64,000 nt of DNA from contig NC_057737.1 of assembly GCF_004010195.1 (NCBI RefSeq), positions 11,532,290 through 11,596,289 on the forward strand. The letters run 5' to 3'. Position 1 is the stretch's first letter. Each line of letters starts with the position of its first letter. The notes beneath the pieces were generated by a model. It saw only the letters and a program-made list of their open reading frames with translations, ran no database searches and was not told the DNA's origin. Shown one piece after another: positions 28,201 through 59,762 of this stretch. The DNA comes from Chiloscyllium plagiosum. Taxonomy: Eukaryota. The translations under genes and the position numbers were made by a program.

Positions 28201-28855
28201 GCCAATCTTCAGTGGCCCTCTGTTCTCAATGTATTGAGTTAAAAACTTTCAACATCAATTAAAAAGACCTCAATAGTCTGATCCCATCCACCATACCCAG
28301 GTAATCTTCCCAAGCCCTACTTCCCTGTTAAGCATTCCAACATTCAATCTGTACTTCATGCTCTCATGCACTCTTTCCCGCCACTTCAAAATATTTTTTG
28401 AAACTAACAATGCTACAAGACTGGGCTCCTTCTACTTTTGTCCCTTTTAGCATATCCCACTCTCTTCATCCATCAATGGCTCAAGCTAGCTAGGTACCCC
28501 ACAAGTTCAAGCATTCTCTCCTTAAATCTCTTCCAGTTCTAATGTCTTTAAAACTCCTCTTAAAAACCCACTGCCCAGCAAGCTTTTAGTATCTACTCCT
28601 AAAATCCTCCTTTAGTTCAGTTTTCTTTTATTCAGTCAGGCACAGCTGACAAGGACAGCCAGTTTATTCAATGCCCATCTGTGGATGCTCTTGAGAAGTT
28701 GGTAGTTAGCCACCTTCTTGAACTGGTGTAGTCTGTATGGCGCAAGTAACACCCACAGTACTATTAAGGAGGAAATTTTAGAAACTTGACACAGCAATGA
28801 AGAAATGGTTCTACATTTACAAGTTAGAGTGGTGTATGTTAGAATAACAGGACCT

Positions 28856-29064
28856 GAAAAATGTGTTGCTGGAAAAGCGCAGCAGGTCAGGCAGCAAAGG
28901 AGCAGGAGAATCGACGTTTCAGGCATAAGCCCTTCTTCAGGAAGAAGGGCTTATATCCGAAACGTTGATTCTCCTGCTCCTTTGATGCTGCCTGACCTGC
29001 TGCGCTTTTCCAGCAACACATTTTTCAGCTCTGATCTCCAGCATCTGCAGTCCTCACTTTCTCC
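28856..29064. mobile_element. Short fold-back Penelope-like element (family C) with hammerhead motif on - strand (28911-28943)
   Basis: ~85-bp inverted arms centred near 28940 and a one-sided tail at 29030-29064. TSD TAGAATAA(C/A)AGGACCT at 28840-28855 and 29065-29080. Core CTGAAGA-AGGGCTTATGCCT-GAAACGTC. Confidence 0.85.
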
Positions 29065-30149
29065 TAGAATAAAAGGACCTACAAGAATTAGGAGGATCAT
29101 TCCCTTTGACCCCTCAAGCCTGTGCCATCTAGCTGTGGTCTTAACTCCACTTTTCTGTCAGCCCCATAACCTTTGATGATCAAAAATGTACGTAACTCAG
29201 CCTTGAATATATTCAATGATCCAGCCTTCATTGTTCTTTACGGAAGAAAATTGTGCAGACTAATAGCCTTCAGAAAAATGTCTCATCTCAGTCTTAAATG
29301 GGAGACCCCTTAACTTTTAAGCTGCGAGCCCTAGATCTAGATTTCTTCATGACAAAAAACACCTTCTTGACATCTGCTCATGCAAGCCCCCTCATTCCAG
29401 TATGTTTCAAATAACAGCTTCTCTCACCCTTCTAAATTCTAATGTGTACAAGCCCAACCTTCCTCAAAATAATCCTTTCAATCCAGGGATAAATTGAGTG
29501 AATGAGCTCTGCAAAACACAGTTTTCTATATTTCCTTTGTGCTATCTGCAAAATTATCCACCACACATTTGGCCCCTTCATCCAAAGTCACTGTAACTGA
29601 TCTGAAGACTGAAGTAAAGACACAGGTAGCTCAAGCAACTATGATGGTTAACCCACCAAGAAGGTGCAAATTTCTTTTTGATTTTCACATAAAAGGGTGG
29701 TAGTTTGGGGAGTGCCAACGATATATCAAGTTATAAAGAATGATAAACCAAAGCTGATAGTGCCTTACAGCCAAAGAAGCTTTCAAGCCTTGTCACTGTT
29801 GTAAAAACAATTTCCAAACAGCAATGTATAGTTCCAATTCCCATAACACTAAGATACTTCAACAAGATCAACTCTCAAGTACTGAATAACAGCAGAGGGT
29901 TTTCGAACTTTCTTCATGAAGTCAGAACTTTAACAGAGGGAGATAGGCCTTGTAGCACTTCTCTGCACTGCTTTCAGCACTTCCATGTTCCAGTGACCAG
30001 AGGTGGACACATACAGAAAATTCGAACTGAGATATTAGAGAATCATGAAAACTTATGTATTCATTATACAAACGTTTGATGCAAGTACAGAAATCGGGGG
30101 CAGGACAGTAATATACTTAAATTAATTAGCATTGAGAGAAGGTATTAGC

Positions 30150-31260
30150 AGCTTTAACATGGGATAGATTTCCAAGATCAAATGAAATGTGAGGTGGTGC
30201 ACTTTTGAAGAAGGAACAAGACGAGAGTGCTCAATAAATGACAAGGATCTAGGAAGACAGTAATTTTGGTGTGCTTGTTGTAGGGTAGGTTGTAGGTGGC
30301 TTTATGGGACACTTGCTATAATATATTCCTCAAATGATAATAAAAGCAGGAAGGTTATGTTGGTGCTGTCCAGAATTTTGGTCAGACCACAACTGGAGTA
30401 GTGTGTACAGTTCTGGTCACCATACTATAGAAAGGATGTGATTGCACTGGAGGAGATTCAGAGGAGATTCATCAGGATGATGAGAGCATTTTAGCGACAA
30501 AGAGAGGTTGGCTAAGCTCAGGTTGTTTTCTTTGGAGCAGAGAAGATTGGGGGGCACCTGATAAACTTATAGAGCTCTATCAGGGGCATGGCCTCTGCCC
30601 TTTGTGAACTTATACAGCTCTATCAGGTGATAAAAAGCAGAATTCCCCTTAGATGAAGGGAATAATAGGATACTGATTAAAAGTGAAAGGCAAGAGGTTC
30701 AGAGGGAATTTGAGGAAACATTTGTACTAGAAACTGGGATTAGAATAGATCGATGTTTGATGACCAGCACAAACACAATGGGCCTCTCTCTGTGCTGTTA
30801 AATCCTCTGATCTGCCATTCATCAGTAAGCATTTATATATAAGCTCAAATCTTTTTCAAGTCTCTAATTAACCATGGATGGTGGATCTTCCCTTTAGAAT
30901 TTTGCTTTATAGTAGAAATGAAAATATTTTCAGTATTCTGAAATATCCCCTTAAATTTCTGCCACTGCATCTCCATTATTCTAAATGGGAAGAATTCAAA
31001 AGTCTGAAGTGCAAAGAAATGGCAGCCAGTGACATATGGTATTCCACAAGGCTCAATGTTGGGACCACAATGTTTCACATTATATTTTAATGATACAGAT
31101 GAAGGAACTGAGGGCATTCTAGCTAAGTTTGCAGACGATACAAAGATAGGGCAACGAACAGGTAACATTGAGGAGATAAGGAGGCTGCAAAAGCATTTGG
31201 ACAGGTTAGGATAGTGGACAAAGAATGGCAGATGGAATACAACATGGGAAAATGGGAGGT
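30150..31260 (+). mobile_element. Cluster of decayed CR1-like fragments
   Basis: GIPQGSMLGP...AKFADDTKIG (31029-31214) and CAGACCACAACTGGAGTAGTGTGTACAGTTCTGGTCACC (~30385). Confidence 0.7.
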
Positions 31261-31311
31261 CAGTACATCAGACAAGAACACCACCCTTGTCAGCAGGAAA
31301 GATTACAAAGT

Positions 31312-31399
31312 TGAAACTTTATTGCTGGAACAGCACAGCAGGTCAGGCAGCATCCAGGGAACAGGAGATTCGACGTTTCGGGCACAGGCCCTTCTTCAG
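31312..31399 (-). mobile_element. Single-arm Penelope-like short element (family C) with intact hammerhead motif (31368-31402)
   Basis: Minus strand TTC-CTGAAGA-AGGGCCTGTGCCC-GAAACGTC-GAA. Flanking direct repeat CAGGAAAGATTACAAAGT at 31294-31311 and 31397-31414. Confidence 0.8.
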
Positions 31400-31789
31400 G
31401 AAAGATTACAAAGTCTGGATTGGATTTGAATGGATTGGAGGGTGAATGGTAATGGCAGCTGATGTCACATTGACAATTCCGAATGAATACATCAAGTGCA
31501 GGTAGGTAAAAGGCCATAGGAAGGAGTCCAAGTTGGGGAAGAGTGTTGGAGGCAGGTGAAGGGGTGTCTGTTGGTCAGGGAGTGAACTCTTGTCCAACTG
31601 AATAGGCATGGAGGCAAAGGCAATGGCAGAAAAATTCAATGTCATGTTGTCCGATTGAGGCAGGGATACAAAGAGGTAAAACTAAGTCCTTTGTTGACTA
31701 CAGAATGTTCAGCACATAACAGGAGGTCAGAATAGATAGTAAATGCTCGACAAGAGCTGGGGTCATGGGAAAGGCATAATTTAGGCTAC

Positions 31790-32110
31790 TAGCCCAACGT
31801 AGTACAAAGGGAGCACCGTCGGAGATGTTATCTTTCATATGAGAAGGCTGACAGCTTCAGTTTAACGTCTCAATTCCATACGAAAGGACCCATGGCACCA
31901 TTTTGAAGAATAGGGCAACGCTCCTTAACGACAGTTACCTCTTGACCAACAATATGCTGTTTGTGGGATCTTGTTGTGCACAAAAACCATTACCACGCGC
32001 CCCGCATTACGACAGGGCACAAACATCAAAGTAGTATTCAACAGGGCGCAAATCAAAGAGGGCTTCGAAAAGTCCCGAGCTGCTGAGAGGGGTTGTATAA
32101 GTAGATTTTC
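31790..32110 (+). mobile_element. Decayed Deu-domain-like SINE
   Basis: GGACCCATGGCACCATTTTGAAGAATAGGG and GCTGTTTGTGGGATCTTGTTGTGCACAAA blocks. Confidence 0.45.
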
Positions 32111-32168
32111 TTTCGAACCGAGTCTTCCTCCCTCCCCCCGGTGACAGAAATCCGGCCCCTGCACCTAC

Positions 32169-32289
32169 TTTCTATAAAGTCCTTGCACTCCTCCTTCAGT
32201 TCTGTTGTGCTTTGCGCCACTTCAGGGTCCAAGACCCGGAGTTTGTTGAGTTCGTCGAAGTGCAGGCCGGCCTCCCCCAGGGCTTCCAT
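32169..32289 (-). CDS. IFT20: IFT20 (intraflagellar transport 20) coding exon 1
   Basis: [40 protein letters not shown]+A. Donor GTAGGT. The four exons total 393 nt (130 aa). Confidence 0.96.
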
Positions 32290-32900
32290 CGCTACCACAA
32301 TCAACAGGGTCCTGCCGTCCCCTATCCCGCTGCCACGGCGACAGCGACGGCTCTCTTCCCCGCGCTACCGCGCATGAGCAGTCCGTGAGGGGGTGGGACC
32401 ATTCCAGAAGCCGCGCATGCTCAGTATCAAATCTCCCGATTGTCTCTCAACGCAGTGTGGGCTCGTGCAACATTCTTTATTTTTGATCTCTCTCAGCAGA
32501 CAGAGCGGTGAACTTTCGTTTGCCTTATTTCGAAATTTTAGGAGACAGAAGGATTTTTTAAAATGACTCACTTCAGCACAACATAGAATAGCGATTTAAG
32601 CAATCGTACCTCGCTCTTTTGTCATATTAAATGATAAATTTACCGGTGGACCTGCTAAGAATGGCACCAACCATTTAACGTCGCTCCGGCTGTATTGTCA
32701 GTGCAAGACGACGGCGGGAAATATTTGTGCGCGTGTACAGTGAGTCGGGTGCCGGCGGGGGAGGCCTGCGCAGTAAGACAGGTGCCGGCGGGGGTCGAAG
32801 TCACGTGCGACCACCCTCGCGCCGGAAGTGGAGGAGGAGCGGCCGCGGCGGTGGTGGTTTGGATGGTCGGCACGGTAACTCCTGCAGGTACTGGGCCTAC
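32290..32900. promoter_or_regulatory. CpG-rich bidirectional promoter IFT20/TNFAIP1
   Basis: Strongest CpG cluster in the window. X-box-like GCTGCCACGGCGAC (32329-32342), two CGCGCATG NRF1-like sites (~32370, ~32412), E2F-like GGCGGGAAA (32713), E-box TCACGTG (32801), ETS CCGGAAGTG (32822). Confidence 0.75.
32825..32874 (+). other. TNFAIP1: Probable non-coding first exon of TNFAIP1
   Basis: GC-rich stretch after the ETS site ending in ACG|GTAACT (alternative donor CAG|GTACTG at 32888). Inferred because the first coding exon has an upstream acceptor at 46333. Confidence 0.45.
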
Positions 32901-33273
32901 TTCGGAGGGGGTGGATGGGTGGGGAGTGAATTACCTGACTAAAACAATCTAACTCGCTGTGGACGGTGCTGTGAGAACGCGAGTTCAGCAAAACGGACTG
33001 GGCGCCCATCGACAAAGGGATGGACATGTCAGCAACCGTCTCAACAGAAGCGAGTTCACGTTCCTCATGGCAGCTGGAAGAAATGATCGTAGAGGTTGGC
33101 ACTCTCTCAGACTGACCGGAGACCTTTAACTGAACCGTTTAACTGGGCTAGGCTATTGGTAAAGGGTGGAACTGGATATTCCCAAGGCTGCATCGGTTTC
33201 AACACGTTCTCCCCTTGGCCTCACCAATACTGCTGAGCATCCCCACTGTTTCTAAATGACCAGACTGTACTCA

Positions 33274-33388
33274 CGATGTGGAGGTGCCAGTATTGGACTG
33301 GGGTGCACAGAGTTAAAATTTGCACAACATCAGGTTCCAAATAAATCTGCTGGACTATAACCCGATGTTGTGTGATTTTTAACTTTGT
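33274..33388. mobile_element. Short fold-back element (family A), centre deleted, no hammerhead core
   Basis: Arms match 5792-5969. Perfect 14-bp TSD CCAGACTGTACTCA at 33260-33273 and 33389-33402. Confidence 0.8.
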
Positions 33389-33849
33389 CCAGACTGTACT
33401 CAGCAACAGCAATTTCTACTAATGTTGGAAAGATGAAAGAAGCCTTCAGCTTTTGTTGCTTTCAGTCCCTTTGTTACTGGTTCCACTCCTCCTTAGTAAT
33501 TGTCTGCAGTTGAATCTGGCTATTTCCAACATTAACATTCAATTTGACTTCAATAAAAGACTCCCAAACAAAGACTGCCTAGTTCCACCCCTGAAACATA
33601 GCCTGACCCTGGTTCAGTTCATCTGCTGAAACAAATTCATGTGTTTGTTATCTTCAGACACTGCTATTCCAATGTGTCTCAGCTTCCCATGATTTACCCT
33701 TCAAAACTTGTCATTCTGCCATATGTTGTACGTGTACCAAGTCCCTTTCAGTGTCCATTCTGCCCAATTAAGTGATATTGCATTTTGAAGTTTTCATCCT
33801 TATTTTCAGATTTTGCCAGAACTTTATCCTTCCTTATCTGATTTTGATC

Positions 33850-34985
33850 TTATTTGATTTATTTTTGTCTCATACCCAAGTAACAAAAAGTATTGCTTTG
33901 CATGCTAGCCAGACAAATCATACCTTATGTAAGTATATTAGGGTATAGAATAAAGCGAAAATGCAGAGAATGATCAACACTGATACATGAGAGGTCTGCT
34001 CATAAATCTGGTAATAGCAGGGAAGAAGCTGTCCTTAAATCTGCTGTTATGTGTTTTGAAACTTTTGCGTCTTCTGTCCAATGGAAGAGATTATAACCAG
34101 GGTGGGAGGGGTCATAGATTATGTTGGCTGCTTTCTGAATCAACAGAATTATAGACTTTGTCAATGTAAGGAAAGCTGATGTGTGTGATGGACTGTGGTG
34201 CGTTCACAACTCTGTAATTTTTTGTGGTCTTGCGCAGGGCCCTACCAAGCTGTGAAGCATTCGATAAGATGTTTTCAATGGTGCATTCATAAAAAATGGT
34301 AAAAGCCATTGTGGACATGCTGAATTTCCTTAGCCTTCAAGGGAAGTAGAGGCACACCAGTCAAGTGGAATGGATGGACTAGGATAAATTGTTGGTGATA
34401 TTTATTCCTAGGAGATTGAAGCTCTTGACTATCTCCCCTCAGCACCATTGGTACAGACAGGGCATGTCCTTCATACTGCTTCCTGAAGTCAATGATCAGC
34501 TGTTTTGTTTTGCTGACATTGAGAGAGAGATTGTAGTCTTTATACCATACCACTATGCTCTCTATCTCTTTCCTGTACTCTGTCTCATTATTGATTGAGA
34601 TCCAACGCAATACAATTGTGTCAGCAAATTTGTAAATAGAGTTAGAGATGAATTTGGTCACACAGTCGTGTCAGCATTAGGAATATCGCAAGAGGCTGAA
34701 TATGCAGCCTTGTAGGGCACTGGTGTTGAGGATTATCATGGAGGTGATGTTGTCGCCCGTCTTTACTGATTGTGATCTGTGGGTCGGGAAGCCAAGGATC
34801 CAATTGCAGAGGGTGAAGCAGAATTCTGGATCTGGGTTTGGAGATGTGGTTGGTTGGAATTATGGTGTTGAAGGTGGAGCTGAAGTCAACAAACAGGAGT
34901 CTGATGTACGGGTCCTTGTTATCCACATGTTCCAAGCATGAGTGTAGGGCCAGGAAAATAGCATCTGCCGTGGGCCTGTTGCCGT
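33850..34985 (-). mobile_element. Rex1/Babar-like LINE RT remnant
   Basis: [25 protein letters not shown]; KFADT...NLSLNVSKTKQLIIDFRK; FYECTIENILS. Confidence 0.85.
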
Positions 34986-35270
34986 GTGCAATTTCCTGCA
35001 GACTCTAACTCCCCAACATGTCTATAATGTTCATACTCTGGTCACTTGAATTTAATTCCTCTGTTGTTGGTGACTATGTCTTTACCAGTCTCATTCCCTT
35101 CCGAAAGATTTCTATACTGCTGTTTGTCTTTTAAGACACTTAAACCTACTGCTTTGATAAAGCTTTTGGTCATCTACCATCTCATTCTTGTGGCTCGGCA
35201 TCAAATTTTGGTTCTTGGCTCTCCTATGAAATGTGCCTTGGAACATGTTACTGTGTTAAAGTCGTATGTA

Positions 35271-38200
35271 GACTTGGCAAGAAGGCAGCGATTCAGTAGA
35301 ACTGCCTTGGATAGCTCTGCCTAACAGCCAAGGCATATTGGTGGGTTTTTTTTTAACAATCCCTGGCCAACTTCTATGGAGAAATTGTTAATTTAAAAAC
35401 ATGAAGAACACATATTCATTGACAATTTGGAGTCTGACGGATGCCAAAAGGAAAAGGAGCAAGCAAACAGCAGTATGAAGGACACTCCCCCACAGCAGCA
35501 GCCTCTCCCGAACACCCGGGGGACCTGACAGACTCACAGAAATTGGCAGCAGCAATGGCGAGACTTACCATGAAGGTTAAGGCTGTGATTGAGGCGATCC
35601 GTGCCCAAGTCCAACCCATCGTGTCCATGTTGCAGAAGCATGAACGGGGAGCTCCAGGTCCTCGGGGAGCGGATAGAGGAGGTGGAGGGTTGAACCACAG
35701 GCTTGGAAGTGGCTATCGGGTCCTTGTCCGGACGGATGCAGGTACTGAAGCAGGAAGTGCAGGCCTTGCGTGATCAGGTCGACGACCTCGAAAGTCAAGG
35801 TAGGAGGACGAATCTTTGGATTGTTGGGCTCACAGAGGGTGAAGATGGTGGGTAGCCAGTCAGCTTGTTTGAAAACTGGCTGCCGCAGTTCCTGGGCCTT
35901 CAAATTGAATCTGGACGGCTGCACATTGAGGGGCTGGGCCTGTACAGTGCCCCACCTGGTCCTATCGCACTTCCTCACATACAGGTACAAGCATAGAAGC
36001 CTCCAGATTACTGGGGAAAGATCCACAGGCACTGCTGCACAAGGGGTCAAAGATCATGTTTTTCCAGGACTTCTCAGCTGCTATAATTTGAGAGAGGAAA
36101 TCCTTCGATGAAGTTAAAAAAAAAGCTGAGGAACCTGGGCATCCAGTACTCCATGAGGTACCCCGCGGTGCTCCATTTCAGCCACGCAGATTCAGTTTAT
36201 ATGTTTGACTGCGGATAAAGCCAAGAACTTTGTAGACACTTTAAAATTATCCAATTAGTCTGAAGAATACGGTTAATGTTCCTCCTGTTTTCCTTCTATC
36301 CCTGTGTTTTCCCTTTCCCTTTTTTCTCTTTCCATAATTTTTAAAAAATTCTTGGAATATATTGTTCCTATTATATTTTTATAACTGGATTTTATCACAG
36401 AATTTTGTGGGTGCCTTTTGTTGTTTTCCCCTTTTTTTATTCTTTTAGTCACAAGTTGGGTGATATGGAACCGGGGATAGGAGTGCTTATTCTGACTTTG
36501 TCGTCTTTTGTTGACTTAAGGGTCATCTCCTTGTTTATTTATTTATTTTTGCCTAAGGCTGTGGCACAGTCCAGGCCTGAAGGAGCTGTGCAGGAGGGAA
36601 TGGGTAGGGCATGTGCCCCCTGTCGGCAGGGGGGAGAGTCTCCTGTTCAAGATTTTATGTTTGGTTTCTTTGTAGTTTTTTGGTAGCAATAGTTGTTTGT
36701 AGTTAGGATAGGGTATTTTTGTATACACAATTTTGCGACTCTTCATTTACTTGTGCTCGGCACATTGCAAGCAGGGTTCTCCTCGGGGGTTCAAGGATCT
36801 CTGAAAGGGGATAGGGCTAAGTGTCTTGTTAAATGATGCACCTGGAACATCAAGGGAAGTCATCCACCTGTTAAAGGAAAAAAGGTGCTAGCTTTAAGGG
36901 GAAATGTCTTGATATCGTCTGTTGCAGGAAACCCATCTTGATGATGGGGGACATCTGAAGTTATAACAGGGGATTATGATTGGTTATTCTTTTCATTCTT
37001 TACTACTAAAAGTAGTGAAGTGGCTGTACTTATCCAGAAAAATCTTCCATTCACATTATTAGAGTAGGTGAAAGATGAGCAAGGACAGTTTGTGATACTC
37101 AAGGCCTAATACGTGGGGAGGAATATAGCATTTTAAATGTCTACTGTCCTCTGGCACATCCCCTCAAATTTTTGATTATTGCCTTTTCTAAGTTGAGTGC
37201 CTTTGGAACACGGCACATTATTATGGGGGGGGGGATTTCAATTGTCCTTTGGATCCAACAGTGGACAGGATGCCTTGTGGGCCCTCAACTATTTCTTCGC
37301 AGGTCAAGCAGGTGGTTGATTTATGGGAGGAGTTGGGGCTGGTGGACATTTGGAGATATCTTCACTCTACCGGCGGGACTTCATTTTTTTTCAAACTCAC
37401 ATAAATGTCACACAAGGATTGGTATTTTTTGGCTCCCTCGACACTTCTGGATTCAATTATGGGTTGTAAAATTGGGAATATAGGTATCTCTGATCACACA
37501 ACGGTATATTTGGAGGTTAAGGCCAAGAGTGAGTGGCTAGGTTTGTGGCACTGGCATCTGGATCCTTTTCTCCTTAAGGATTCCAAATTTGTGGAATGCT
37601 TTTTGAGGGAGTTTCAGGACGACTTGACTATCAACTTGAGCACAGCTAGTAGTCCATCTATGCTATGGGAGACCGCTAAGGCCTCTGCTAGGGGATTAGC
37701 TATTTCCTGTTTGGCTAGCCGGAAATGACCGAGGGGAGAACAGCAGCGTCTACTTGAGACGTGGCCGAAAGCTGCTGAGATGGCATGTTTTGTGAGGCCT
37801 TTGGTAACCAAGCTACAGCAGATCACAGCCCTTTGGGCTGCCTTGAATTCAATACTTACACAAACCGCAAAGAAAGAACTTGCTTTTGTGAAACAAAGGC
37901 TGCTCGATATGGGGATAGGCCAGCGAAGTATTTAACATATCTGACTAGAAAAAAGCGTGCTCCTTAATCCATTACTGCAGTTAGAAACTGCGCCGGGGTC
38001 CTTACATACGATGTCAAAAGGATTAATGAGTCTTTTTGGTCTGAAGGTTGCGAGGATAGGAGAGCCAAGATGGAAGCTCTTTTTTTTAAGAGCCTGGACC
38101 TCCCCGGGGACAACCCTGGAAAAGGCCTCCCTCCTTAATGCCCCCTTGACGGTTCAGGAAATACAGGAGGCAGCTAGGCAACTTCAAAGTGGGAAAGCAC

Positions 38201-40897
38201 CTGGTCCTGATGGTATCCCGGGTGAGTTTTACAAGGAGTTTATAGGGATTCTGTCAGGGTCGATGCTAGAAATGTACAATCACTCCTATATGCATGATTG
38301 CCTACCACCATCTTTGGGAGAAGCTAATATTTCCTTCATTCTTAAGAAAGGAAGGGTTCCTGAAGATTGTGCCTCATACAGGTCCATCTCTCTATTAAAT
38401 TTAGATTTTAAGTTTCTGTCTAAGAGTTGGGCGCTAGGATTGGAGAAGGTATTTCCCCATATTGTCAAAGAGGGCCAGGCAGTTTTTATAAGGGGCTGTA
38501 GGTCTTCTAATAATATTAGAAGGTTGCTGAGTGTGAACCAAGCATGTCAGCAGCAATCGATCCAGGGGTTGGTGATTTCCTTAGCTGCAGAGAAAGCATT
38601 TGACCAGTACCTCTTTTATGCCTGAGAGCAGTTTGGGTTGGGTGGGGTCTTTGCTAGGTGGGCAGAGGTTTTATATTGCCACCCTCTAGCCACAGTCATA
38701 ACCAATGGGGTGAATTCTGGGAACTTTAGGATTGGCAGGGGTAGTCATCAAGGCTGCCCCCTCTCACTTGTTGTTTACGTTGGTGATAGAGCAGCTGGCA
38801 AAGGTCATTCGTCAGAATGTCCACATAACCACACTGGAAGTGGGATCGAGGGTACACAAGATTGCACTGTATGCGGATGATGTCCTTCTGTTTTTATCGG
38901 GCCTAATGACCTCCATACTCCATCTGATACATTGTATTAATTCATTTGAGGCTTTTTCAGGATGTAAGATCAACTTTGCAAAATTGGAGGCTATGCCTTT
39001 GGGGGACCTTAAGGAAATGCCAGTGGTTGAAGGTGACCCTAGGTTCCCCTTTAAGTGGTCAAGGGCAGGTTTCCAATACCGAGGAATCTTTATTACCTCC
39101 CATGTTTGATCGGTTATTTCGTACTAATTTTGCTCATCTGCTCAACAATATTTGGCAGGATCTTCAGAGATGGGAGGCTGTTCCAATTTTGTGGTTGGGC
39201 CAAATAGCCATTATTAAGATGAATGTCCTCCCTCATCTGCTTTATCCTATGCATATGCTCCCTATAATGTTTCCCAGGTCAACATTGCAGAAACGTATTG
39301 GTTGGTTTCATTCTTTCGTCCGGCGTTGAGTGGCCCCTCATCAAACTTACTAAATTGCAGTTGCCTCAAGGATGGGAACGAGTTGATTTCCCAGAATCAG
39401 GAGATATCAGTTGAATTCCCCACTGTCCTTTGTGTGCAATTGGGAAGGTAACAATCCAGGCTCAATGTGGCTGGATATCGAGGTCTCCCAGGGAAAGTGC
39501 CCTCTTATTAACCTGTTGCTCATGGATAAGATGAGGACAGTTACGGACCACTGCTGGAACCCCATTGTTATTAGTACAGTCAAGGCATGGAGAGCAATGC
39601 ATCAGAGTGAGGGTTGCTTATCCAAGACTTTGCTATTCACTCCATAGTTGCTATGCTGGGGTTCTGACCAGAGATGATGCACTCAGAGTTCAAACTTTGG
39701 GCAGCGAGAGGAGTTTCCAGCTTGGAAGATTTGTTTGAGGGTGAGATTGTGATGTTTTTCGAGAAACCGAGCTGAATATACGGGCTGCCCAGCAGAGATC
39801 TTTTCCATTTTCATCAGCTTAAGGATTTCATCCAGAAGGAAACTACGCTTCTCACTAAGCCCTATAAGCCCGATATAGAGAGGATGTTGCTACATGCCAC
39901 AAGCACCCTTTCGGTTAATGCCCTTTAATTGCCTGCTGGATGATAGGGCCTGGCAGAATATTAACCGGTTATGTGAGGTTTGGGAGCAAGAGCTAGGAGT
40001 GGAAATCTCTTCTGGAACGTGGGAGGACATGGGAGAACATGCGAAAGATCTCAATTTGTAATAGGGCATGCGGCTATGCAGTTAAAAGTTCTGCACAGGG
40101 TTCATTTGGCACTGGATTGTCTGGCCAAATTTTAAAAAGGGGCATCTCCAATGTGCCTCTAATGTAAAATAAGTGTAGGTACTCTTACCCATTGCTTCTG
40201 GACATGCCACAGGCTCCATGTTTATTGGAGCTGTGGTGGGAGAGGTAGGGTATTGAAGACTAAAGTTAGAGTAGACCCGATATCTCTCCTAGATCTATTG
40301 AATTTGTCATCTTTAGACGGGCATAGGAAGAAACTACTTAATATTCTTATTTACTGTGCACAGAAGAATATTCTGATGAATTAGGTGTCTGAGAACCCGC
40401 TAGGCTTGCTTTGATGGTGGAAATTAATTATGGCACACATTCTCGTGGATCTTTTCACAAATACGGTGCACCACATAACAGACATTTTTATTTATAAGGC
40501 ATGGCGGCCCTTTTTGAGTTATTTGGACACAGATCTGTCTGGTATGTTAACTAGGGCGTTTGTTTAACCAGGGTGGTTAGGTTTGCTGAGCCCTGGAGAG
40601 GGAGGGGGGCTCCTGAGTTAATACGGGTATATATACAACACTCCCGTTTTTTGTTTGGGAGCTTTACACTGAGCATTGTTATTTTGTGTTTTTTTTTGTA
40701 TTATTAGTCACTTATTTATTGGTATTGTTTTGCACAGTGTTTGGTTTTGTTTTGTATTATTGGGTAGGTTAGTAGACAGTAGTTGTATTGTAATTTGTGG
40801 GGTTTTTTGTTGTACTGGTATTTGTTAAATTTTCAATAACTTTATATTGTTGTAAAGTCAAAAGGTTTTTTCACTAATAAATGTATTTACACAAAAA
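35271..40897 (+). mobile_element. Full-length decayed L1/Tx1-clade LINE (ORF1 ~35441-36260, ORF2 ~36810-40570)
   Basis: Endonuclease motifs (TWNIKG, LQETHL, ISDH), RT motifs (GKAPGPDG, YRSISLLN, QGCPLS, LYADD), C-terminal C..C...H...C at ~40155-40207, T-rich 3' UTR, AATAAA plus short A tail. Putative TSD GTATGTA at 35264-35270 and 40898-40904. Many stops and frameshifts. Confidence 0.9.
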
Positions 40898-43249
40898 GTA
40901 TGTAAATATAAGTTAATGTTATATAATGCAAGCATTTAAACTTTGACCTTAAAAAATGCTTTTTCATTTGACTACGAAAGTGCCTGCTGATGTAGGAAAT
41001 TATGAAATGGCTAGAGTGAAATATTTGGCTTTTACTTTGCTTTGTTTCTATTAAGTACAGCACAAATTCCTACACTGGCTGAATTTTCAATCTAGTGTTG
41101 TGAACAATGAACTTAATGCGATTTGTTGAGATAATTGATATCTCATTGCTTTAATTTTGTTACCAATAGTTCTCCCTCAGATAACTTGGTAAGCACATTG
41201 ACATTCTGCTGAAATTGATCATTCAGTGTTGAAATGTATTTCTGCAACAATTAATGGTTTGGATACTACTATTCTCAACTGTATTGACGTAGATTTTTTT
41301 CAGCTTAGAAAGATTCCATTTGGCTTATCACACCTGTGATTTATTCCATTACCTGTTTTCAGTTTTATCCCTCAGTCCATTGTGACACTATTGGCCCCTC
41401 TATGAAATATTTGATTTTATTGTTAACCCACCAGGTAGCACTTTTCCAAGTACATTTGAGAATGGTGATTATTTCCATATAAATGAAATTATTAACTTCT
41501 CAAGTTTTGGACTGAAGTTGAAGACTGTGTTATAGTGATGGATTTGGAAATCTGCAGCGTATTTATTCTGTTTAAAAATACAATTCGTTTAGTTGGTGGT
41601 TTGGTGTTTTAACACTCATTTTAATGTGCCAATAATGTAAAGTACTTTTTTATTAGAATTTTAAAAATTCACTGGTGTACTACCTTCTAAAGAGTTAACA
41701 TGATTAAAGTTACAGCAGCAGATGAGTATGTAACTTTCAATTTATTCATAAATGATTCATTCCGAGTATGTATTTGAACTTAGAACTTTTGAATTCTTTA
41801 ACTTAAAACTTGGCCTGAAGTATTACATAGATGCATAGTCATCATACAAAAATTAACACAGTCCTTGGATGGCAATGACAGAAATGACCAGAAACTTAGT
41901 CAAAAATGTGGCTGAAGAAGGTGGTGGGTGAATGGGTTTCGGAACACAGAGATGTGACTGCGAGGATATTTTCCAGTGGTGTGCTTCAAGGATGGGGTAT
42001 GATATTAATGGTATTTTAATTGTATTGCTGAGATACATAATGAAAGCCATTGTTTATTTATGTACTTGGAGCACTGCTGTCATATGTTTATTGAGTTTAA
42101 TTTGGTTTGATTGAAATAGTATAGTGACATCTGAGACACTGGATTAGTATGTCAAAAGTAGGCATACAAAATGCTGCATTTTGTCAATAAACATATTATC
42201 TGGAAAAGTATCAGTGTCTAGTTTCATATTCTAATTGATTTGAGATCTGAATAAAACTGTAGAGCTGGAGGAAGAAAGAGATAGGAAATGGGAATGCCGT
42301 AAATTCAATGGCTAAAAATCCTGTGGATGTCAATATTAGGTGGTACTGCGAATGGCTGGTGTAAAGGGGACCACTACAAAATTTTGGACTGAGGTAAGAG
42401 GCAAAAGCAGTCTTCAAGCTGGCATTGCCATAAGTTCCAGCCAGAACTCAGTAGGACTCAGTTGCCCAACCCATAGACGAATTATGATGTATGTGTAGGT
42501 GCTTCCTACAACTTGCCCTGTTGTAGCTAGCTGCCACTAATATACAGTGTGTTATGGATAATCACTCCAAAATTCATTGGCCATCCTGTAATTTTATGAT
42601 ATACTCTGTTTAAAAAGTCTGTGACCGTTCATCATCAAATGCATAAGTCCTCCAGAGCATAGGAAAGGAATTGCTCATCAGTTGTAAATGGCTGACCCCA
42701 AATTCATCTCCCCCAGGGGATATATTGACTTAACATCCACACTATCTGTTTGAGAATTTAATATATTTCAATTAGATCACTCGTCGTTTCTTTGTAAGTT
42801 CCAGATGAAAGATTAGAGGAATTTAATGCCTGGGGTTTTTTTGGCCACAGTGGTTGCCCTTAAAACTAAACAGGAGTTCAAAACTGAAAGACAGCATTTT
42901 TCAGCGATACATTCTGTTGTGAAGTCCCTCAGCGCCTTGTCCTGTGTTTAATCTAATGTTATATATTAAGATTTAGGAAGTCACATTGTTTCTACCAAAT
43001 GCCATTAATGAGGCCTAATGCTGTTCATTCTGTACTGTAGAGGCAGTACAGGATATGCTTACTTCAGATTTACAGAGCTGAACTAAAAAAATTCTTTTAA
43101 AAAAATTAACCTATTTTTCTAATCAACCTGTACAGAAATGTTAGTAGACGCCTCTAGAGCTTGAATTTGGATCTCCAAGTCCGGGTGCGGTAGGGACATT
43201 AACATGGCACAAGAGGGCCCTTTTAAAGTATAGGCACTACTGAGATATT

Positions 43250-44212
43250 CAAAGTTTGGGTGAAGATTTGTAGCTTGGGTGCTCATTGTTGTGGTTCTGT
43301 TCGCCGAGCTGGAAATTTTTGTTGCAAATGTTTCGTCCCCTGTCTAGGTGACATCCTCAGTGCTTAGGTGCCTCCTGTGAAGCGCTTCTGTGGTGTTTCC
43401 TCCGGCATTTATAGTGGCCTGTCCCTGCCGCTTCCGGTTGTCAGTTTCAGCTGTCCGCTGTAGTGGCCGGTATACTAGGTCCAGGTCGATGTGTTTGTTG
43501 ATGGAGTTTGTGGATGAGTGCCATGCTTCTAGGAATTCCCTGGCTGTTCTTTGTTTGGCTTGCCCTATAATGGTAGTGTTGTCCCAGTCGAATTCATGTT
43601 GTTTGTCGTCTGCGTGTGTGGCAACTAGGGATAGCTGGTCGTGTCGTTTCGTGGCTAGTTGATGTTCATGGATGCGGATCGTTAGCTGTCTTTTGGGGGC
43701 CTCCTGCGAAGCGCTTCTTTGATGTTTCCTCCGGTGTTTATATTGGTCTGTCCCTGCCGCTTCCGGTTGTCAGTTTCAGCTGTCGGCTGTAGTGGCCGGT
43801 ATATTGGGTCCAGGTTGATGTGTTTGTTGATGGAGTTTGTGGATGAATGCCATGCCTCTAGGAATTCCCTGGCTGTTTTTGTTTCGCTTGCCCTATAATG
43901 GTAGTGTTGTAGTGGGACAACACTACCATTATAGGGCAAGCGAAACAAAGAACAGCCAGGGAATTCCTAGAAGCATGGCACTCATCCACAAACTCCATCA
44001 ACAAACACATCGACCTGAACCCAATATACCGCCCACTGTAGCGGACAGCTGGAACTGACAACCGGAAGCGGCAGGGACAGGCCACTATAAATGCCGGAGG
44101 AAACACCACAGAAGCGCTTCACAGGAGGCTCCCAAGCACTGAGGATGTCACCTAGACAGGGGATGAAACGTTTGCAACAAAAATTTCCAGCTCGGCGAAC
44201 AGAACCACAACA
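43250..44212. mobile_element. Penelope-like element remnant (family D): GIY-YIG 3' end plus pseudo-LTR in inverted arms, with hammerhead motifs at 43324-43363 (-) and 44136-44175 (+)
   Basis: AREFLEAWHSSTNSINKHINLDPIY (PLE GIY-YIG C-terminus). Two minus-strand segments followed by one plus-strand arm. Perfect TSD ACTACTGAGATATT at 43236-43249 and 44213-44226. Confidence 0.9.
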
Positions 44213-44724
44213 ACTACTGAGATATTTTACTGTATGATTGCTTAAGTAAAAAATATACAGTGATACTTTGTAGGAAGGAGCAGGTGCAGGGGTTCAAGCA
44301 GTGTTTACATTTGGTTAGTGTGATATGTTAGGTCAAGGAAGGCTGTGTTTTTCTGCCCAGTACTTTTTTAAAAGTCTGCCCATTTATTTGCATCTTTGTC
44401 AGTCTTCTGTTGCGTGGGTGTAATTGAACGTTAATATTTCAAAGAGTGTATGAGGCTGTCATCAGCATGATTAAATATTTGTTTCAACCTTGAGAAATCT
44501 TGCTGAGTCATTAGTCTGATTCAGCAATTCATTTAATAGGTGTGGAAGGACATTACTCATTGTATTGCATACAAAGTTCAGAACAAAAGTGTACTGTCCT
44601 CTTTTGTCCCTTCCCCATAACTTTGTTAGGTTTTGTTTCCTTTCATGAATAATAAAGAATCCACGTCCAGATATAAACTTACATATTCTCAGAATGTTTG
44701 ATTGTGGAACATTACTGACATATT

Positions 44725-44995: not shown

Positions 44996-45827
44996 ACCCA
45001 ATGCTGTCCTCGATCTAAGAGGTAATTCAATAGTAAATAGAACCAAAAAATTTGCTTGTTCAATGGCCCAAATGCTATCCAGCCATGAGTAGCGCCCCAT
45101 GAAAAGTTAAATTTGACTTTGTTATTAGCAAGATTCAAACAAAAAAAACCTGAAAACTTGTATTTGCCTTGAGTCTTTCATAAACTCAGAAAAACACAGA
45201 ATATTGGTACTTTTAAAGTAAACACACTTTAAAAGTGTAACGTAACAGCCATTTGCACACAGCAAACCCTCAAACAACAATCTGCCCGCCACCTTAAGTA
45301 TTCATTGCCTCCACCATTGGTGCACACTGAATACTGCATCTTGTAAAAAGCCATTTGGTTTACTGTGTTCTTTCAGGATGAAAATCAGCCATCATTACCC
45401 AGTCTGATCTGTGAGGAGACTCAATGTCACAGCAATGTACTTGATTCTTAGCTACCCTATGAAATAGCCAAGCAAATCATTCATTTGTGTAAAACGTTTA
45501 AACTTGCAGGATTTCAAGAAGGTAGCTCGTCCTCTGTTTATAGAGGGGAATTACAGATGGACAATAGATGCACAGACATCCACATCCTGAGAATTATTTT
45601 TAAAATATCCACAATAGTCAGCAAATCATTCAAGAAAATTCAACTGAGAAATTGATCTATGTCACCAGCAGCTTTAATTTGAAACTCAAGTCTTCCTAGT
45701 AACCATCTTACAAATTTAAAATTTGTCATTTGTTTGAATTGTGAAACTTAATTCCTAAAATTATACATTTTGTTTGTTTTTATTACTGAATTGCTTTGTG
45801 TCCTCATCATTACATTGAATTTTTTAT

Positions 45828-45940
45828 GGGAGAAAGTGAGGACTGCAAATCAGAGCTGAAAATGTGTTGCTGGAAAAGCGCAGCAGGTCAGGCAGCATCC
45901 AAGGAGCAGGAGAATCGACATTTCGGGCATGAGCCCTTCA
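45828..45940 (-). mobile_element. Single-arm Penelope-like short element (family C), truncated inside the hammerhead core
   Basis: Matches 28856-29064. Perfect TSD ATTGAATTTTTTAT at 45814-45827 and 45941-45954. Confidence 0.85.
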
Positions 45941-46444
45941 ATTGAATTTTTTATACAAAGACAGGTCATCATTAATTACTGAATGCATATTCAAAAGTTT
46001 TCCAAATGCTGAAAGGTAAACAAAACTAAAATTTACCATTAGAATTCTAATTGAGGAAATCTGGAAGTCCTCATAGGGTTGAAGACCAATGGTTTTCATA
46101 ATGATCATTATTGGCCTGAATTATCCACTCCCTCCTTTATCTTACGTTTTAGTATTAGAATTGAAAACATTTCTTAAAGCACAGTCACCAGATTAACAAT
46201 TTCAATAATATTCATGTCTCAAGTAATGATAGCTTTGATAACCTATAATGCAACATATTTTCAGATTAAGTATAAAATACTGTTTGTTTCTAGTTATTCA
46301 TGTATTACAAAATAATTTTCCTTGTTTTTTCAGTGGTGCATATGTTAAGAGCATTTGTGAGTGTGGCCAGACCTTGGCTTGACGATCACGGCGGGACAGT
46401 TTAAGCCAACTGTGTGCAGAGTTACTATTTATCTACAGAGAGAA

Positions 46445-46658
46445 ATGTCTGGAGATACCTGCTTAACATCACTATACCCATCTTCTGGAGCCAAACCCAA
46501 AGCCCTCAGCTTTAAAGGAGGAAGCATGGGGAACAAATATGTCCGATTAAATGTTGGAGGCTCCTTGTACTATACCACTGTTCAGATTTTAACCAGACAT
46601 GATACTATGCTAAAGGCAATGTTTAGTGGAAGAATGGAAGTGCTTACTGACAAAGAAG
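46445..46658 (+). CDS. TNFAIP1: TNFAIP1 (BACURD2, BTB/KCTD adaptor) first coding exon; exon probably starts at 46334
   Basis: MSGDTCL...[42 protein letters not shown]+G. Donor GTGAAT. The N-terminus and synteny with IFT20 favour TNFAIP1 over KCTD10/KCTD13. Confidence 0.95.
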
Positions 46659-48299
46659 GTGAATATAATCTAACCACAAGTACCAGAAGTAACCAGAAAA
46701 CCAATTTTAGGTTTTCAGAGTTGTGATGCATATATTGATGTGTATTAATATACTGAAATCATTCCTCACATTTACCACAGTTTGGCAGGACTTGATGTTC
46801 CGCAAATAAAAGTTCTTTAGAAATAATTAAAATTGGAGATACAAGCAAGACCAGTTAACACTAATAACAACATGAATGCTGACCATCAATTTTACCCTTG
46901 GGAGTTCAGATAAAGCTGTGGCGCTCAACTTTCCAAAGCAAATTGTATTGTATAATGTCTAATTATGATGTCCCCACTACCAGCTAATTACCTTAAACTC
47001 AGCAAATAGAGAGGCTGTCACTTGGCTTCAGGGATTCACATTCATTAAATAAACAGATTTTATTTTTGAAACTGTAAACTTGATTTATTTTTGGAATTGT
47101 GCAATGTGTAGGTGTGATAAAAATCATGTCTAAAGTTGGGTCTCCGTAAACACAGCAAAATAAACAGTTAAATTTACATACCTGTATTTTAATAATTATA
47201 CATTTTCAAGATATGTTTTAAATTAGTACCACGTAGTTCTAATTGGATCATTTTCCTGAGATTTTGATTCAGGAAAAATTACACTTTGGTAAACTGTTAC
47301 TGCAAGCGAGAAAGGTTAGTGTGAAATCATTAATGTATAGTATGTACACGTACTAATTTATATCTATTACAAGTCTACCAGGTATTGTTGCATTGTCTAG
47401 TTGTCGTTTACTATTTTTGTACATTTAACATTTGAATGTTGTAATGCAGATGATAAATTCTTGAAGTCTGTATTGCATACAAAATAACTTCTCTGCGATG
47501 AGTGTGGGAACAAAAGGCTATTTTGTTAAATTGAGAAAATCGTTCAAGACCTAGTTTCACAGTGTAGCATACTGCCAGGTATGGAGAGAAGATGAACCAA
47601 ATTACATTTAGCTGATGCCAACCTTGGATGCGAAATGCTTAGAGATTCATGGATGCAGAGAAGACTGTGTGAGCACATTTTGAGATCTTATGATACACCA
47701 GAATACAAAATGGCTTTGAACTTGCTGCATCCAGTTTTGTGACCTAATCTGGTAATTTTCCATTTTTTCCTACAAGAAAATTATATATAAACTCAAACGT
47801 TCAACATCATTTTGAAATGACATTCCTTCGTGATCTTCTTGAAGGAGGTCTGGTTTCGTCAGGTGATACGACAAGTTTATTTGTAAATTATTGGAAAAAA
47901 ATGTTAAATGTCTCCAATTTTAATCCTGATTTCTTTGGATTATAATATTATTTAATGTTTCAGAGAATGCCTCTTTCTCTGTACATTTTCAATGCTTTCA
48001 TTTTAAAAACCAGATCTGATCCAGTTTTCTTTTAATACAAATTATTTATTACAGTGTTAACGAGCTAGCAAAGTTCTCATGGGCTTTGTGGTGCAAAAGT
48101 AACTTCTATTAAAGTGCTTCTTAAAGATGCATCTTATTATGTTTAATGTGATGAGACAATAACTTAATTGTACACATTTTACAGTTTAATTGTCACTACA
48201 GTGCATATCTCTTAAATTCCTGTCTTGGTCCATCACTATCAATTCGATTGAAAGAAAGCGACACGACAGATATTGAAGGGACATGGTTTTGTTGAAAAT

Positions 48300-52533: not shown

Positions 52534-52643
52534 GTCACAACATTTTTGTGTTTTTTTTGTAATGGAAGATTTTTTTTTTAGATTTGCCACTAATTCTCCA
52601 TATCACTTAATAAAAGCTAACTGCCTTCATTCTTTACCAACAG

Positions 52644-57900: not shown

Positions 57901-58385
57901 AATGCAAATATATTGATGTCTACTTACATTTCAGTCCTGTGTGAATTTCCAAGTCTTTTTTTTTAATGAGCTAATTTGCAAAATCTTCGAAGGCACAAAT
58001 ATTGCAGTGATTGAGGTGCTGCTTGCGTCTGTGAATATTGTAACATCAAATATTGCAATTAAGCTGTGAAATGGTTGTTTAAATTGTGGTTGCTGAAAGG
58101 CTTACAGTGAGCCCAGTTGATTAACTAACACTGGAATACTCACCCACGAAACCACTGTGTAAATAAAACTGCTCAGAATTTTTGACACTGTGATGGATTT
58201 TTTTTCCCCACAAAGTTGCTGTATCGCACATATTTAAAACAACCTGTAGCAACACTATTTGTAAGGAATAACTTTCTGGAAGGGTACTTCTACTTCTAGA
58301 CCAGAGTGTTGCTCCTTTTTAAATATTGTACTAAAAAATTAAATATTTACTAACATTAATAAAATGTGGTGTTGCTTGAGTGTAG
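54992..58385 (+). other. TNFAIP1: Probable long (~3.4 kb) TNFAIP1 3' UTR with several poly(A) signals
   Basis: Repeat-poor AT-rich stretch. AATAAA at 57655, 58162 and 58358, the last followed by GT-rich sequence. Extent inferred. Confidence 0.55.
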
Positions 58386-58734
58386 TCTGTCTTTTAAATA
58401 CAATTGTGATTCTAATCTGTGTACCTTTTGTAAACATTTCAGTATTTCAACAGAATCAAGTTATCAGCTTAATTCTGGATTAGGCATAATAAAGATAGCA
58501 AGATCATTTTTCAGCTTTAAGAATGTAAATAATGTCCATGTAAATTCATCCATGATAGTGAATGTAAATGTTATCTAATGCCAAAAACTAATCATTTAGG
58601 TTGCAGACCATTAGAAGATTCTTCAATTTTGTTTCAAAATGTGATAGTTACAACTTCAGCTGAGCACTGTCTACCAACATGAAAATTGTTGAAATTTTAT
58701 CATTGGTATTGAATCCCTGTAATGTGGAAACAGG

Positions 58735-59748
58735 ATGTCGGTTTGCTCGCTGAGCAAGATTTGTATTTCAGATGTTTCATCAACGTACTAGGTAACATCA
58801 TCAGTGAGGCAAAAGTGAGTACTGCAGATGCTGGAAATCAGAGTCTAGATTAGAGTGGTGCTGGAAAAGCACAGCAGGTCAGGCAGCATCTGAGGAGCAG
58901 GAAAATCGACATTTCAGGCAAAAGCCCTTAATCAGGAATCAGGTTTTTTTTCCCCGAAATCCATCACAGTGTCAAAACTTCTGAGCAGTTTTATTTACAC
59001 AGTGGTTTCTTCAGTTTTCCTGCTCCTCGGATGCTGCCTGACCTGCTGTGTTTTTCCAGCAGCACTCTAATCTAGGCCCCAACATCATCAGTGAGCCTCT
59101 GGATGAAGCACTGGTGGCATGGCCTGCTTTCTATTTGTGTTTAGGTTCCTTGGGTTGGTGACGTCATTTACTGTTATTTTTCTCGGGGGGGTGGTAAATG
59201 CAATCTAAGTCAATGTGTTGGTCGATAGAGTTCTGGTTGGAATGCCATGCTTCTAGGAATTCTCGTGCATGTCTCTGGCTTGTCCTAGGATGGATGTGTT
59301 GTCCCAGTTGAAGTGGTGTCCTTCCTCATCTGTATGTAAGGATACTAGTGAGAGTGGGTCATGTCTTTTTGTGGCTAGTTGATGATAGTATCCTTACATA
59401 CAGATGAGGAAGGACACCATTTCGACTGGGACAACACATCTATCCTAGGACAAGCCAAACAGAGACACGTACGATAATTCCTAGAAGCATAGCATTTCAC
59501 CCCGAACTCTATTGACAAACACATTAACTTGGATCCCATTTACTACCCTCTAACAAAAATGACATCACCCACCCAAGGAAACCTAAATACAAAAGAAAGT
59601 GGGCCATGCCACCAGTGCTTCATCTGGAGGCTCACTGATGATGTTACCTAGTATTGTGACAAAAGGTCTAAAAATGAACTTTCCAGCTCAGTGAGCAAAC
59701 CTACATCCCGAACCTCAACCTGAGCTAAAAATCTTCTCAAAACTCGCT
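58735..59748. mobile_element. Penelope-like fold-back element (family D-related) inserted into a V-SINE
   Basis: Plus arm translates TDEEGHHFDWDNTSILGQAKQRHVR*FLEA*H...SIDKHINLDPIY; turn near 59385. Hammerhead motifs at 58768-58807 (-) and ~59632-59670 (+, mutated). Duplication A(A/G)TG(T/A)GGAAACAGG at 58721-58734 and 59749-59762. Confidence 0.85.
58809..59080. mobile_element. Nested short fold-back element (family C variant) containing captured host sequence
   Basis: Inverted arms CTAGATTAGAGTGGTGCTGGAAAAGCACAGCAGGTCAGGCAGCATC / GATGCTGCCTGACCTGCTGTGTTTTTCCAGCAGCACTCTAATCTAG. Perfect TSD AACATCATCAGTGAG at 58794-58808 and 59081-59095. Confidence 0.85.
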
Positions 59749-59762
59749 AGTGAGGAAACAGG

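Follow-up and report, generated by a model that had tools for sequence, protein, structure and literature searches.

Why should short palindromic insertions in a shark genome be flanked by direct repeats of similar length and carry a tail at only one of their two ends? The question is raised by a 64,000-nt stretch of Chiloscyllium plagiosum DNA (the window), a single sample that provides six fold-back inserts and nine target-site duplications (TSDs) (Table 1). Judged from their sequence, the inserts are 5′-truncated ends of endonuclease-bearing Penelope-like elements (PLEs), that is, products of retrotransposition and not MITEs.

Table 1. Inserts in the window, with their flanking repeats and parts (strand in brackets)
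Insert	Span	Repeat or TSD	Arms and tail	Other features
E1, fold-back	28840..29080	28840-28855 / 29065-29080, 16 nt, 1 mismatch	tail-less 28856-28944 (-); tailed 28941-29064 (+), tail about 29027-29064	centre at hammerhead core
E2, single tail-less arm	31294..31414 (-)	31294-31311 / 31397-31414, 18 nt	31312-31396	about 6 nt of element microhomology per end
E3, fold-back, second family	33260..33402	14 nt (33260/33389)	tail 33274-33306; tailed arm to 33336 (-); tail-less 33337-33388 (+)	tail-less arm about 22 nt longer 5′
E4	43236..44226	14 nt (43236/44213)	tail 43250-43286; outer unit 43287-43692 (-); inner unit 43693-43910 (-), partial tandem; right arm 43913-44212 (+)	both arms: GIY-YIG C-terminus coding and hammerhead
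E5, single tailed arm	45814..45954 (-)	14 nt (45814/45941)	45828-45940	11-nt deletion in tail
E6, fold-back	58794..59095	15 nt (58794/59081)	tail 58809-58844; tailed arm to about 58945 (-); host filler 58944-59009; tail-less 59015-59075 (+)	nested in hammerhead core of E7 left arm
E6 filler source	58148..58209			host DNA about 590 nt upstream; 12 nt direct and 53 nt inverted copied, 98%
E7, fold-back, second ORF-bearing family	58721..59762	14 nt (58721/59749), 2 mismatches	tail-less 58735-59386 (-), interrupted by E6; tailed 59386-59748 (+), tail about 59707-59748	within SINE-like element; tail-less arm about 38 nt longer at 5′ end
W1, fold-back, E3 family	5782..5981	11-12 nt, one indel	one tailed arm	inside older PLE-like remnant
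W2, old single arm	12904..13024 (-)	12 nt, 1 mismatch		hammerhead

Coding remnants and hammerhead motifs

In tblastn searches, E4 showed 90% identity to P0001, a shark protein of the RT + GIY-YIG type, over residues 349-463, and E7 showed 62-70% identity to the C-terminus of the same protein; this coding link holds for E4 and E7 only, and concerns a C-terminal remnant only. RVT_1 was found in P0001 at E 3e-6, below the Pfam cut-off, and above the cut-off in its homologue P0010, where GIY-YIG (E 0.008) remained below it; the 117-aa fragment of E4 matched no Pfam family. A motif scan, which also gives chance matches that were left aside by eye, located the hammerhead core CTGAnGA...GAAA with short stems in seven of the nine TSD-flanked inserts (E1, E2, E4, E6, E7, W1 and W2), E3 being truncated below the hammerhead and E5 at it. 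No hammerhead was matched in Rfam at the gathering score. In E4, positions 43693-43910 lie in tandem with 43250-43692, forming a partial tandem (pseudo-LTR, pLTR), and the features expected of PLEs are present: an inverted 5′-truncated copy with a tail at one end, a pseudo-LTR, a hammerhead motif and a TSD. The window copies of the short families (E1/E2/E5/E6, E3/W1 and W2) hold no ORF tying them to PLEs, and these families are provisionally assigned to PLEs by hammerhead, tail and architecture. From their motifs, the elements are presumably Poseidon-like. Insert sizes are stump-like (100-960 nt).

The first-pass annotation had taken these MITE-looking palindromes for products of retrotransposition, and the GIY-YIG coding ends, the hammerhead motifs, the outward 3′ ends and the asymmetric ends bear this out. 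Direct repeats around short palindromes are what MITEs, DNA-transposon derivatives with terminal inverted repeats, would also display. That origin is nevertheless extremely improbable here and is effectively refuted by the termini, the TSD spread and the coding remnants: the arms derive from the 3′ ends of retroelements and carry a hammerhead and a remnant of GIY-YIG coding sequence, and instead of symmetric terminal inverted repeats and a fixed TSD there are asymmetric ends, TSDs of 11-18 nt and single-arm copies. PLE palindromes of this sort are easily misfiled as MITEs.

Further copies were found neither in viral nor in metagenome contigs (0 matches in each). Of 72 metagenome candidates from a protein-alignment scan, 4 proved to be distant loci, and the 40 candidates from viral contigs gave none; the three distant metagenome loci inspected held no usable TSD-flanked insert.

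Direct repeats as target-site duplications

A direct check of the window reproduced the positions, lengths and mismatches of all seven direct repeats reported by the first-pass annotation. Those of E1-E6 score 12-18 at the element boundaries, values equalled by none of 600 random boundary pairs. The E7 repeat, with a score of 9 equalled by 10 of the 600 pairs, is marginal on score alone; we accept it as a TSD because sister copies of the SINE-like element, near 8.2 and 16 kb, hold the 14-mer once, each of the two E7 repeat copies differing from the sister-copy 14-mer by one base. The 15-mer of E6 is likewise present once in the right arm of E7, a paralogous single-copy target. By the test on 600 pairs and by these paralogous targets of E6 and E7, the repeats behave as TSDs. 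The two cases already regarded as weaker fared unequally: W2 (12904/13013, score 8, equalled by 15 of 600 pairs) stays marginal, and W1 (5782/5970) is not significant when ungapped and reaches its 11-12 nt once one indel is allowed.

Within the window, a clear or probable TSD flanks 9 of 14 PLE-like inserts. None was detected at the five older PLE-like remnants (2.9, 4.4, 5.7, 6.9 and 7.0 kb), where the best exact repeats are 4-7 nt, and an unbiased census of the window, with a chance expectation of about 6.5 repeats of at least 12 nt, gave comparable repeats at none of eight CR1/SINE-like boundaries. Two other pairs from the census were rejected: 9358/10395 resembles a duplicated exon piece, and 45471/45620 has nothing recognisable between its copies.

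Orthologous empty sites in related sharks had been proposed as a check, and contig ends offer indirect support for two of them. Two contigs of organism B, a related shark, start aligning exactly at 31397 (112 and 173 letters unaligned), where the right E2 repeat begins; this start was seen in 2 organism-B runs. For E4, an organism-B contig starts exactly at 44213 (1 run, 97 letters unaligned) and an organism-C contig at 44232 (149 letters unaligned). These alignment ends are consistent with the E2 and E4 sites being empty in organism B. The E1, E3 and E5 inserts are common to organisms B and C, and E1 contigs run into the insert to 28878-28881. Among the contig joints listed, mostly paralogue matches, none skips directly across any insert.

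Length of the duplications

Repeat lengths across the TSD-bearing inserts are 11-18 nt, with a mode of 14. The range of 14-18 bp given by the first-pass annotation thus holds for the best inserts, and W1 and W2 widen it overall. Could this narrow range be an artefact of ascertainment, the eye catching only repeats of at least 12 nt, microhomology inflating them and the true staggers being broad? The 11-12 nt of W1 and W2, the five old remnants with no TSD and the overlap of several repeats with element sequence (1-6 nt) would all agree with this idea, but we find it unlikely, given that the six best-preserved inserts, picked via a homology census and not via their TSDs, all have repeats of 14-18 nt (mean 15.2, SD 1.6) and none of 5-10 nt. 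The nick spacing of 14-16 nt proposed by the first-pass annotation would be read from six to nine sites whose ends are blurred by microhomology. No shared motif was found among the target 14-18-mers, whose A+T content is 50-93%.

One tail per fold-back

The fold-backs are E1, E3, E4, E6, E7 and W1, and E2 and E5 have a single arm each. One arm extends beyond the other by 38 nt in E1, 33 in E3, 37 in E4, 36 in E6, 42 in E7 and about 34 in W1, so that the one-sided tail previously noticed is confirmed, with measured lengths of 33-42 nt in place of about 30-35. Exactly one tail is present in each of the six fold-backs, a result with a chance of 1/64 if arms chose independently, although this count may be biased because the one-sided tail helped to flag the fold-backs. 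The 3′ ends of E1-family tails cluster at 29064-29067, with 309-860 contigs per position among the positions listed, read depth in the contig comparison not being equal to copy number. RNA folding is significant for one of six tails, that of E7, an AC-rich stem-loop (z -3.2); the tails of E4 and E1 fold no better than shuffles.

Two primed cDNAs or one

How would two arms with a single tail be made? We think it probable that the inserts derive from twin-primed TPRT by PLEs of at least four families, the same 3′ segment being copied twice. The RT/GIY-YIG protein would nick the two strands of the target with a stagger of about 12-18 nt, mostly 14, and the 3′ overhangs would each prime reverse transcription on the element RNA, one primer starting at the distal site (the tail end) and the other some 35 nt upstream. 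Both cDNAs, each truncated, would meet centrally via microhomology, short snap-back or filler DNA, and the target would be duplicated by gap filling. Extension of one end only would give a single arm with or without a tail (E2, E5, W2).

Separate priming of two cDNAs would explain the arm haplotypes, the unequal 5′ ends and the host filler better than simple snap-back does. In E4, the right arm agrees with the outer-left unit at 11 sites versus 4 for the adjacent inner unit, and continues past the position at which the inner unit jumps. Each arm of E3 and of E7 contains sequence that its partner lacks, the tail-less one reaching further 5′, and in E6 the centre is occupied by host filler. Priming from both ends with a variable central join, as proposed by the first-pass annotation, is favoured by these arms and by this centre. 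Arm-to-arm conversion could also explain the E4 haplotypes, and non-nested arms could alternatively arise if a palindrome later lost sequence asymmetrically.

Under the competing account, single-primed TPRT would be followed by snap-back, the cDNA folding at its 3′ end and copying itself back, stopping some 35 nt before the end of the tail; self-priming was put forward for PLE inverted repeats in the accessible text of PMC3846280. The centres of E1 and E4 are near-perfect hairpins (offsets of 4-5 nt; 33 nt at 100% in E4), for which snap-back is the simpler account; in E6 and W1 the tailed arm is the longer one, and opposite-strand joints at the hammerhead occur in four of four runs. Still, we hold snap-back to be doubtful, and equally so its corollary that unequal centres come from later deletion in the palindrome. 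A self-copying cDNA should not have passed over the inner unit of E4 and its junction, nor left longer tail-less arms in E3 and E7 or host filler in E6. The inner site is a true RT start, because the single arm of E2 ends there, and a clean TSD beside both arms is a prediction of both-end priming in the accessible part of PMC11702581.

Palindromes could also be mobile as units, as non-autonomous palindromic retroposons or retrozyme-like RNAs using PLE proteins, with an asymmetry inherited from a master copy. The hammerhead centre of E1 does recur, the opposite-strand joint 28943/45939 being found in 4-18 contigs per run. This mode of origin is very unlikely, however, as centres within a family are unlike (E1 vs E6; E3 vs W1), either end can be found on a single arm and the centre of E6 carries DNA of the same locus from 590 nt away.

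More tentatively than twin priming itself, a concerted form of it is possible, in which a GIY-YIG/RT dimer would set the stagger of ~14 nt and the protomers would obligately use different RT start sites. Perfect-hairpin centres would then be short snap-backs making a sense-strand handle by which one cDNA anneals to its partner (E4). If this were true, the very numerous mini-insertions would be an in vivo record settling the origin of PLE inverted repeats and tails, and an unrelated nuclease would have converged on the L1 stagger.

Comparison with known systems

The first-pass annotation had considered this TSD pattern unexpected for PLEs. This view is not supported by the accessible text of PMC3846280, PMC8557442 and PMC2377424, which describes an inverted pLTR with one-sided tail and TSD as PLE architecture, with tails of 31 nt in Adineta and 34-37 nt in Drosophila virilis. 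Because the inverted arm with a one-sided tail of 30-40 nt is already a published PLE signature, the architecture is not new. As far as these sources extend, published EN+ PLEs share with the shark inserts the partial tandem, the inverted 5′-truncated copy, the optional one-end tail of 30-40 nt, the TSD, the palindromic head-to-head junction and the hammerhead in the pLTR. They differ in that TSDs of the rotifer Adineta are 8, 9 and 10 bp, whereas those of the shark are 11-18 (mode 14), and in that the shark junctions lean to two cDNAs while PMC3846280 favoured self-priming. No survey of PLE TSD lengths was found in the searchable literature, nor such lengths in the accessible portions of PMC8969392, PMC9977147, PMC4455052, PMC5718144, PMC6765202 and PMC12910113.

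The value of the present inserts is mechanistic and modest: TSDs of ~14 nt and unequal arms suggest copying from both cut chromosome ends. In their accessible text, PMC8557442 calls the making of the PLE inverted copy and tail undefined and PMC11167929 leaves the matter unvalidated. According to the latter, the Poseidon protein of Anolis (PAc) cuts and extends both strands in vitro, with two internal RT start sites bounding the tail and a predicted dimer. Both-strand priming, the two-start-site tail, the AC-rich stem-loop (here in the E7 tail) and the predicted dimer are thus alike, but the inverted arm is not derived there from two-ended priming, and the one-tail rule is left unexplained because the start sites are the same on both strands. 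The accessible text of PMC11167929 states neither a TSD length nor the distance between nicks; its supplementary figures may show the cut spacing. Short, abundant and flanked by TSDs, the shark copies allow the question to be approached by counting: tables of TSD length, of tail pairing and of haplotypes in the arms can be drawn up genome-wide.

L1 offers another parallel. Its twin-primed insertions have discrete TSDs of 12-18 bp (PMC11702581) and its TSDs a median of 13 with quartiles 10-15 (PMC12016303), in the portions available of both sources; alike are the priming of both target ends, the oppositely oriented cDNAs and the microhomology and templated filler at junctions. Unlike L1, the shark inserts have neither a poly(A) tail nor a T-rich L1 cut site, their nuclease being GIY-YIG rather than APE, and the arms cover the same 3′ segment, whereas L1 arms cover adjacent segments with a short overlap. 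Finally, the CTGAnGA...GAAA core is shared with the minimal hammerheads of PLE pLTRs (PMC4209133) and with animal retrozymes (10.64898/2026.07.22.740005), as given in the accessible text of both; the shark inserts are dispersed truncated ends, not arrays of tandem monomers.

Target-site duplications at the Penelope-like inserts

Re-checking the sequence recovered all seven direct repeats that the first-pass annotation had reported, each in its place. Repeats were scored at the element boundaries against a null of 600 random boundary pairs: E1–E6 scored 12–18, with 12 attained by 0/600 random pairs, E7 scored 9 (10/600) and the weak case W2 scored 8 (15/600). A homology census of the window added five further old remnants of Penelope-like elements (PLEs), at which no target-site duplication (TSD) was detectable, and the TSD is clear in seven of the 14 PLE-like inserts, probable in two (11–12 nt) and absent in five. 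Because eight boundaries in the window that we take to be CR1- or SINE-like carry repeats of at most 7 nt, the long repeats are, within the window, specific to the PLE-like class. Repeat length averages 15.2 (SD 1.6) in the six clean inserts and 14.2 (SD 2.0) in all nine, a stagger estimate blurred by microhomology: about 6 nt at each end of the E2 18-mer are shared with element sequence, and the overlap is 2–5 nt in E1, up to 3 nt in E3 and 1 nt in E4 and E5.

Since E6 and E7 landed inside other repeats, paralogous empty sites are on hand. The E6 15-mer occurs once in the other arm of E7, and the E7 14-mer once in each of two sister SINE-like copies, from whose version each E7 copy differs by one substitution. 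Contigs of two related organisms, B (about 4% diverged) and C, were aligned over 28500–46300, and E1, E3 and E5 are present in both. In at least two B contigs the alignment starts at 31397, the first base of the E2 right repeat, and leaves out 112 and 173 letters; in at least one it starts at 44213, the first base of the E4 right repeat (97 unaligned), and in at least one C contig at 44232, near that repeat (149 unaligned). Indirectly, these starts fit empty sites that would hold one target copy. B and C lack a presumably CR1-like 274-nt 3′ fragment, their contigs skipping exactly that stretch (44720–44993), which has no TSD beyond about 3 nt.

Identity and architecture

The translations of E4 and E7 are the end of a PLE protein, closest to proteins of Chiloscyllium (79–92%), Hemiscyllium, Rhincodon and Stegostoma, which marks the host as a bamboo-shark-like carpet shark. 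E4 is 90% identical to residues 349–463 of the shark protein P0001. Both P0001 and P0010 contain a reverse transcriptase (RT) and match GIY-YIG weakly at the C-terminus. Coding sequence is absent from the window copies of the short families, whose putative assignment to PLEs rests on hammerhead, tail and architecture. A motif scan found minimal hammerhead cores in E1, E2, E4, E6, E7, W1 and W2, resembling those that PMC4209133 describes in PLE pLTRs; an Rfam search detected none of them at the gathering score.

In all fold-backs the 3′ ends point outward, with the 5′-truncated ends of the arms brought together at a variable centre. A tail of 33–42 nt extends a single arm in 6/6 fold-backs, the two 3′ ends lying about 35 nt apart. 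Since single-arm copies are either tail-less (E2, W2) or tailed (E5), use of one 3′ end does not depend on the other. At each listed position within 29064–29067, several hundred contigs per run, in all four runs, broke off and went on into unrelated flanks, which makes the tail end sharp genome-wide. The inner tandem unit of E4 stops at 43693, some 4 nt to the 5′ side of the hammerhead core, and the short copies E1, E2, W1 and W2 start from this edge too. The inner unit is 8–10% diverged from both outer arms, which suggests that a second RNA template may have served in one event.

Caption: Features of the window (positions within the window; for E1–E7, W1 and W2, start of the insert)
Feature	Position	Remark
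E1	28840	
E2	31294	single arm, tail-less
E3	33260	
E4	43236	
E5	45814	single arm, tailed
E6	58794	
E7	58721	
W1	5782	weak case
W2	12904	weak case; single arm, tail-less
Old PLE-like remnant	2890–3010	no detectable TSD
Old PLE-like remnant	4430–4520	no detectable TSD
Old PLE-like remnant	5735–6010	no detectable TSD
Old PLE-like remnants	6860–7074	two in tandem; no detectable TSD
Coding exon	9330–9450	presumably TMEM97-like; degenerate partial duplicate ~1 kb downstream (about 10380–10430)
L1-like ORF2 pieces	37945–39329 (+)	broken; weak RVT_1 match
Exon	46361–46726 (+)	BTB/POZ domain (Pfam BTB_2); presumably KCTD10/13/TNFAIP1-like
Short tandem duplications	61072–61252	
Two ORFs	61908–63660 (+)	presumably gag-like region of an LTR element; Pfam search of second ORF gave weak unrelated matches only

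Origin of the two arms

How did the inverted arms arise? The TSDs would point to staggered nicks in the target, with priming presumably from both target ends. This mechanism, proposed in the first-pass annotation, extends published work and is the likeliest reading, one we hold with moderate confidence. Two separately primed cDNAs are somewhat favoured over snap-back of a single one by the E4 right arm, which agrees at 11 sites with the outer-left unit, the distant one, against 4 for the adjacent inner unit and does not have the latter's jump at 43693. The tail-less arm also reaches further 5′ than the tailed arm in E3 (~22 nt) and E7 (~38 nt), so neither arm duplicates the other, and the centre of E6 contains a 66-nt copy of host DNA from 58148–58209. 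However, both the E4 haplotype pattern and the unequal arms of E3 and E7 could also have come about through asymmetric deletion after insertion or through conversion between arms, the E1 and E4 centres are hairpins with offsets of 4–5 nt, and the central 33 nt of E4 are 100% complementary. A hybrid course would fit E4, in which one cDNA briefly snaps back and the sense strand made in this way pairs with the other cDNA. The E4 arms differ at 12/301 sites, equal to the difference between the source species and B, which would be at the limit for a source-specific insert. The E6 filler (58944–59009) is itself folded, with 12 nt direct and then 53 nt as an inverted copy of the nearby host DNA.

Comparison with known systems

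The pattern is real and was correctly observed, and its kind is already known. PMC3846280 describes an inverted pLTR with an optional 31-bp tail, 8–10 bp TSDs, for one of which an empty site was verified, and head-to-head junctions that are palindromic and are ascribed to self-priming, PMC2377424 a 34–37 bp repeat in Drosophila virilis, and PMC11167929 a lizard PLE protein that cleaves and extends both strands, two internal start sites that bound the tail and a predicted dimer. Architecture and tail were thus already known for PLEs, and the first-pass view that the pattern is unexpected for them holds at most for TSD length. Narrow TSDs with two-ended priming are likewise known for L1, from PMC11702581 (twin-primed insertions with discrete 12–18 bp TSDs) and PMC12016303 (TSD median 13). 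Our literature search surfaced no PLE TSD-length survey and no shark description of PLE insertions, though earlier PLE literature or Repbase/Dfam may hold them, nor twin priming applied to PLEs, which earlier PLE literature may have.

Two metagenome contigs carry distant matches to the PLE protein. L002 has a distant PLE-like fragment of an RT, and upstream of it lies a 33-nt inverted repeat (4–93), possibly an inverted pLTR junction. On L003 units of 59 nt (internally palindromic) and of 29 nt form tandem arrays at 2213–2743 and 3050–3699, downstream of a weak (27%) PLE-protein match.
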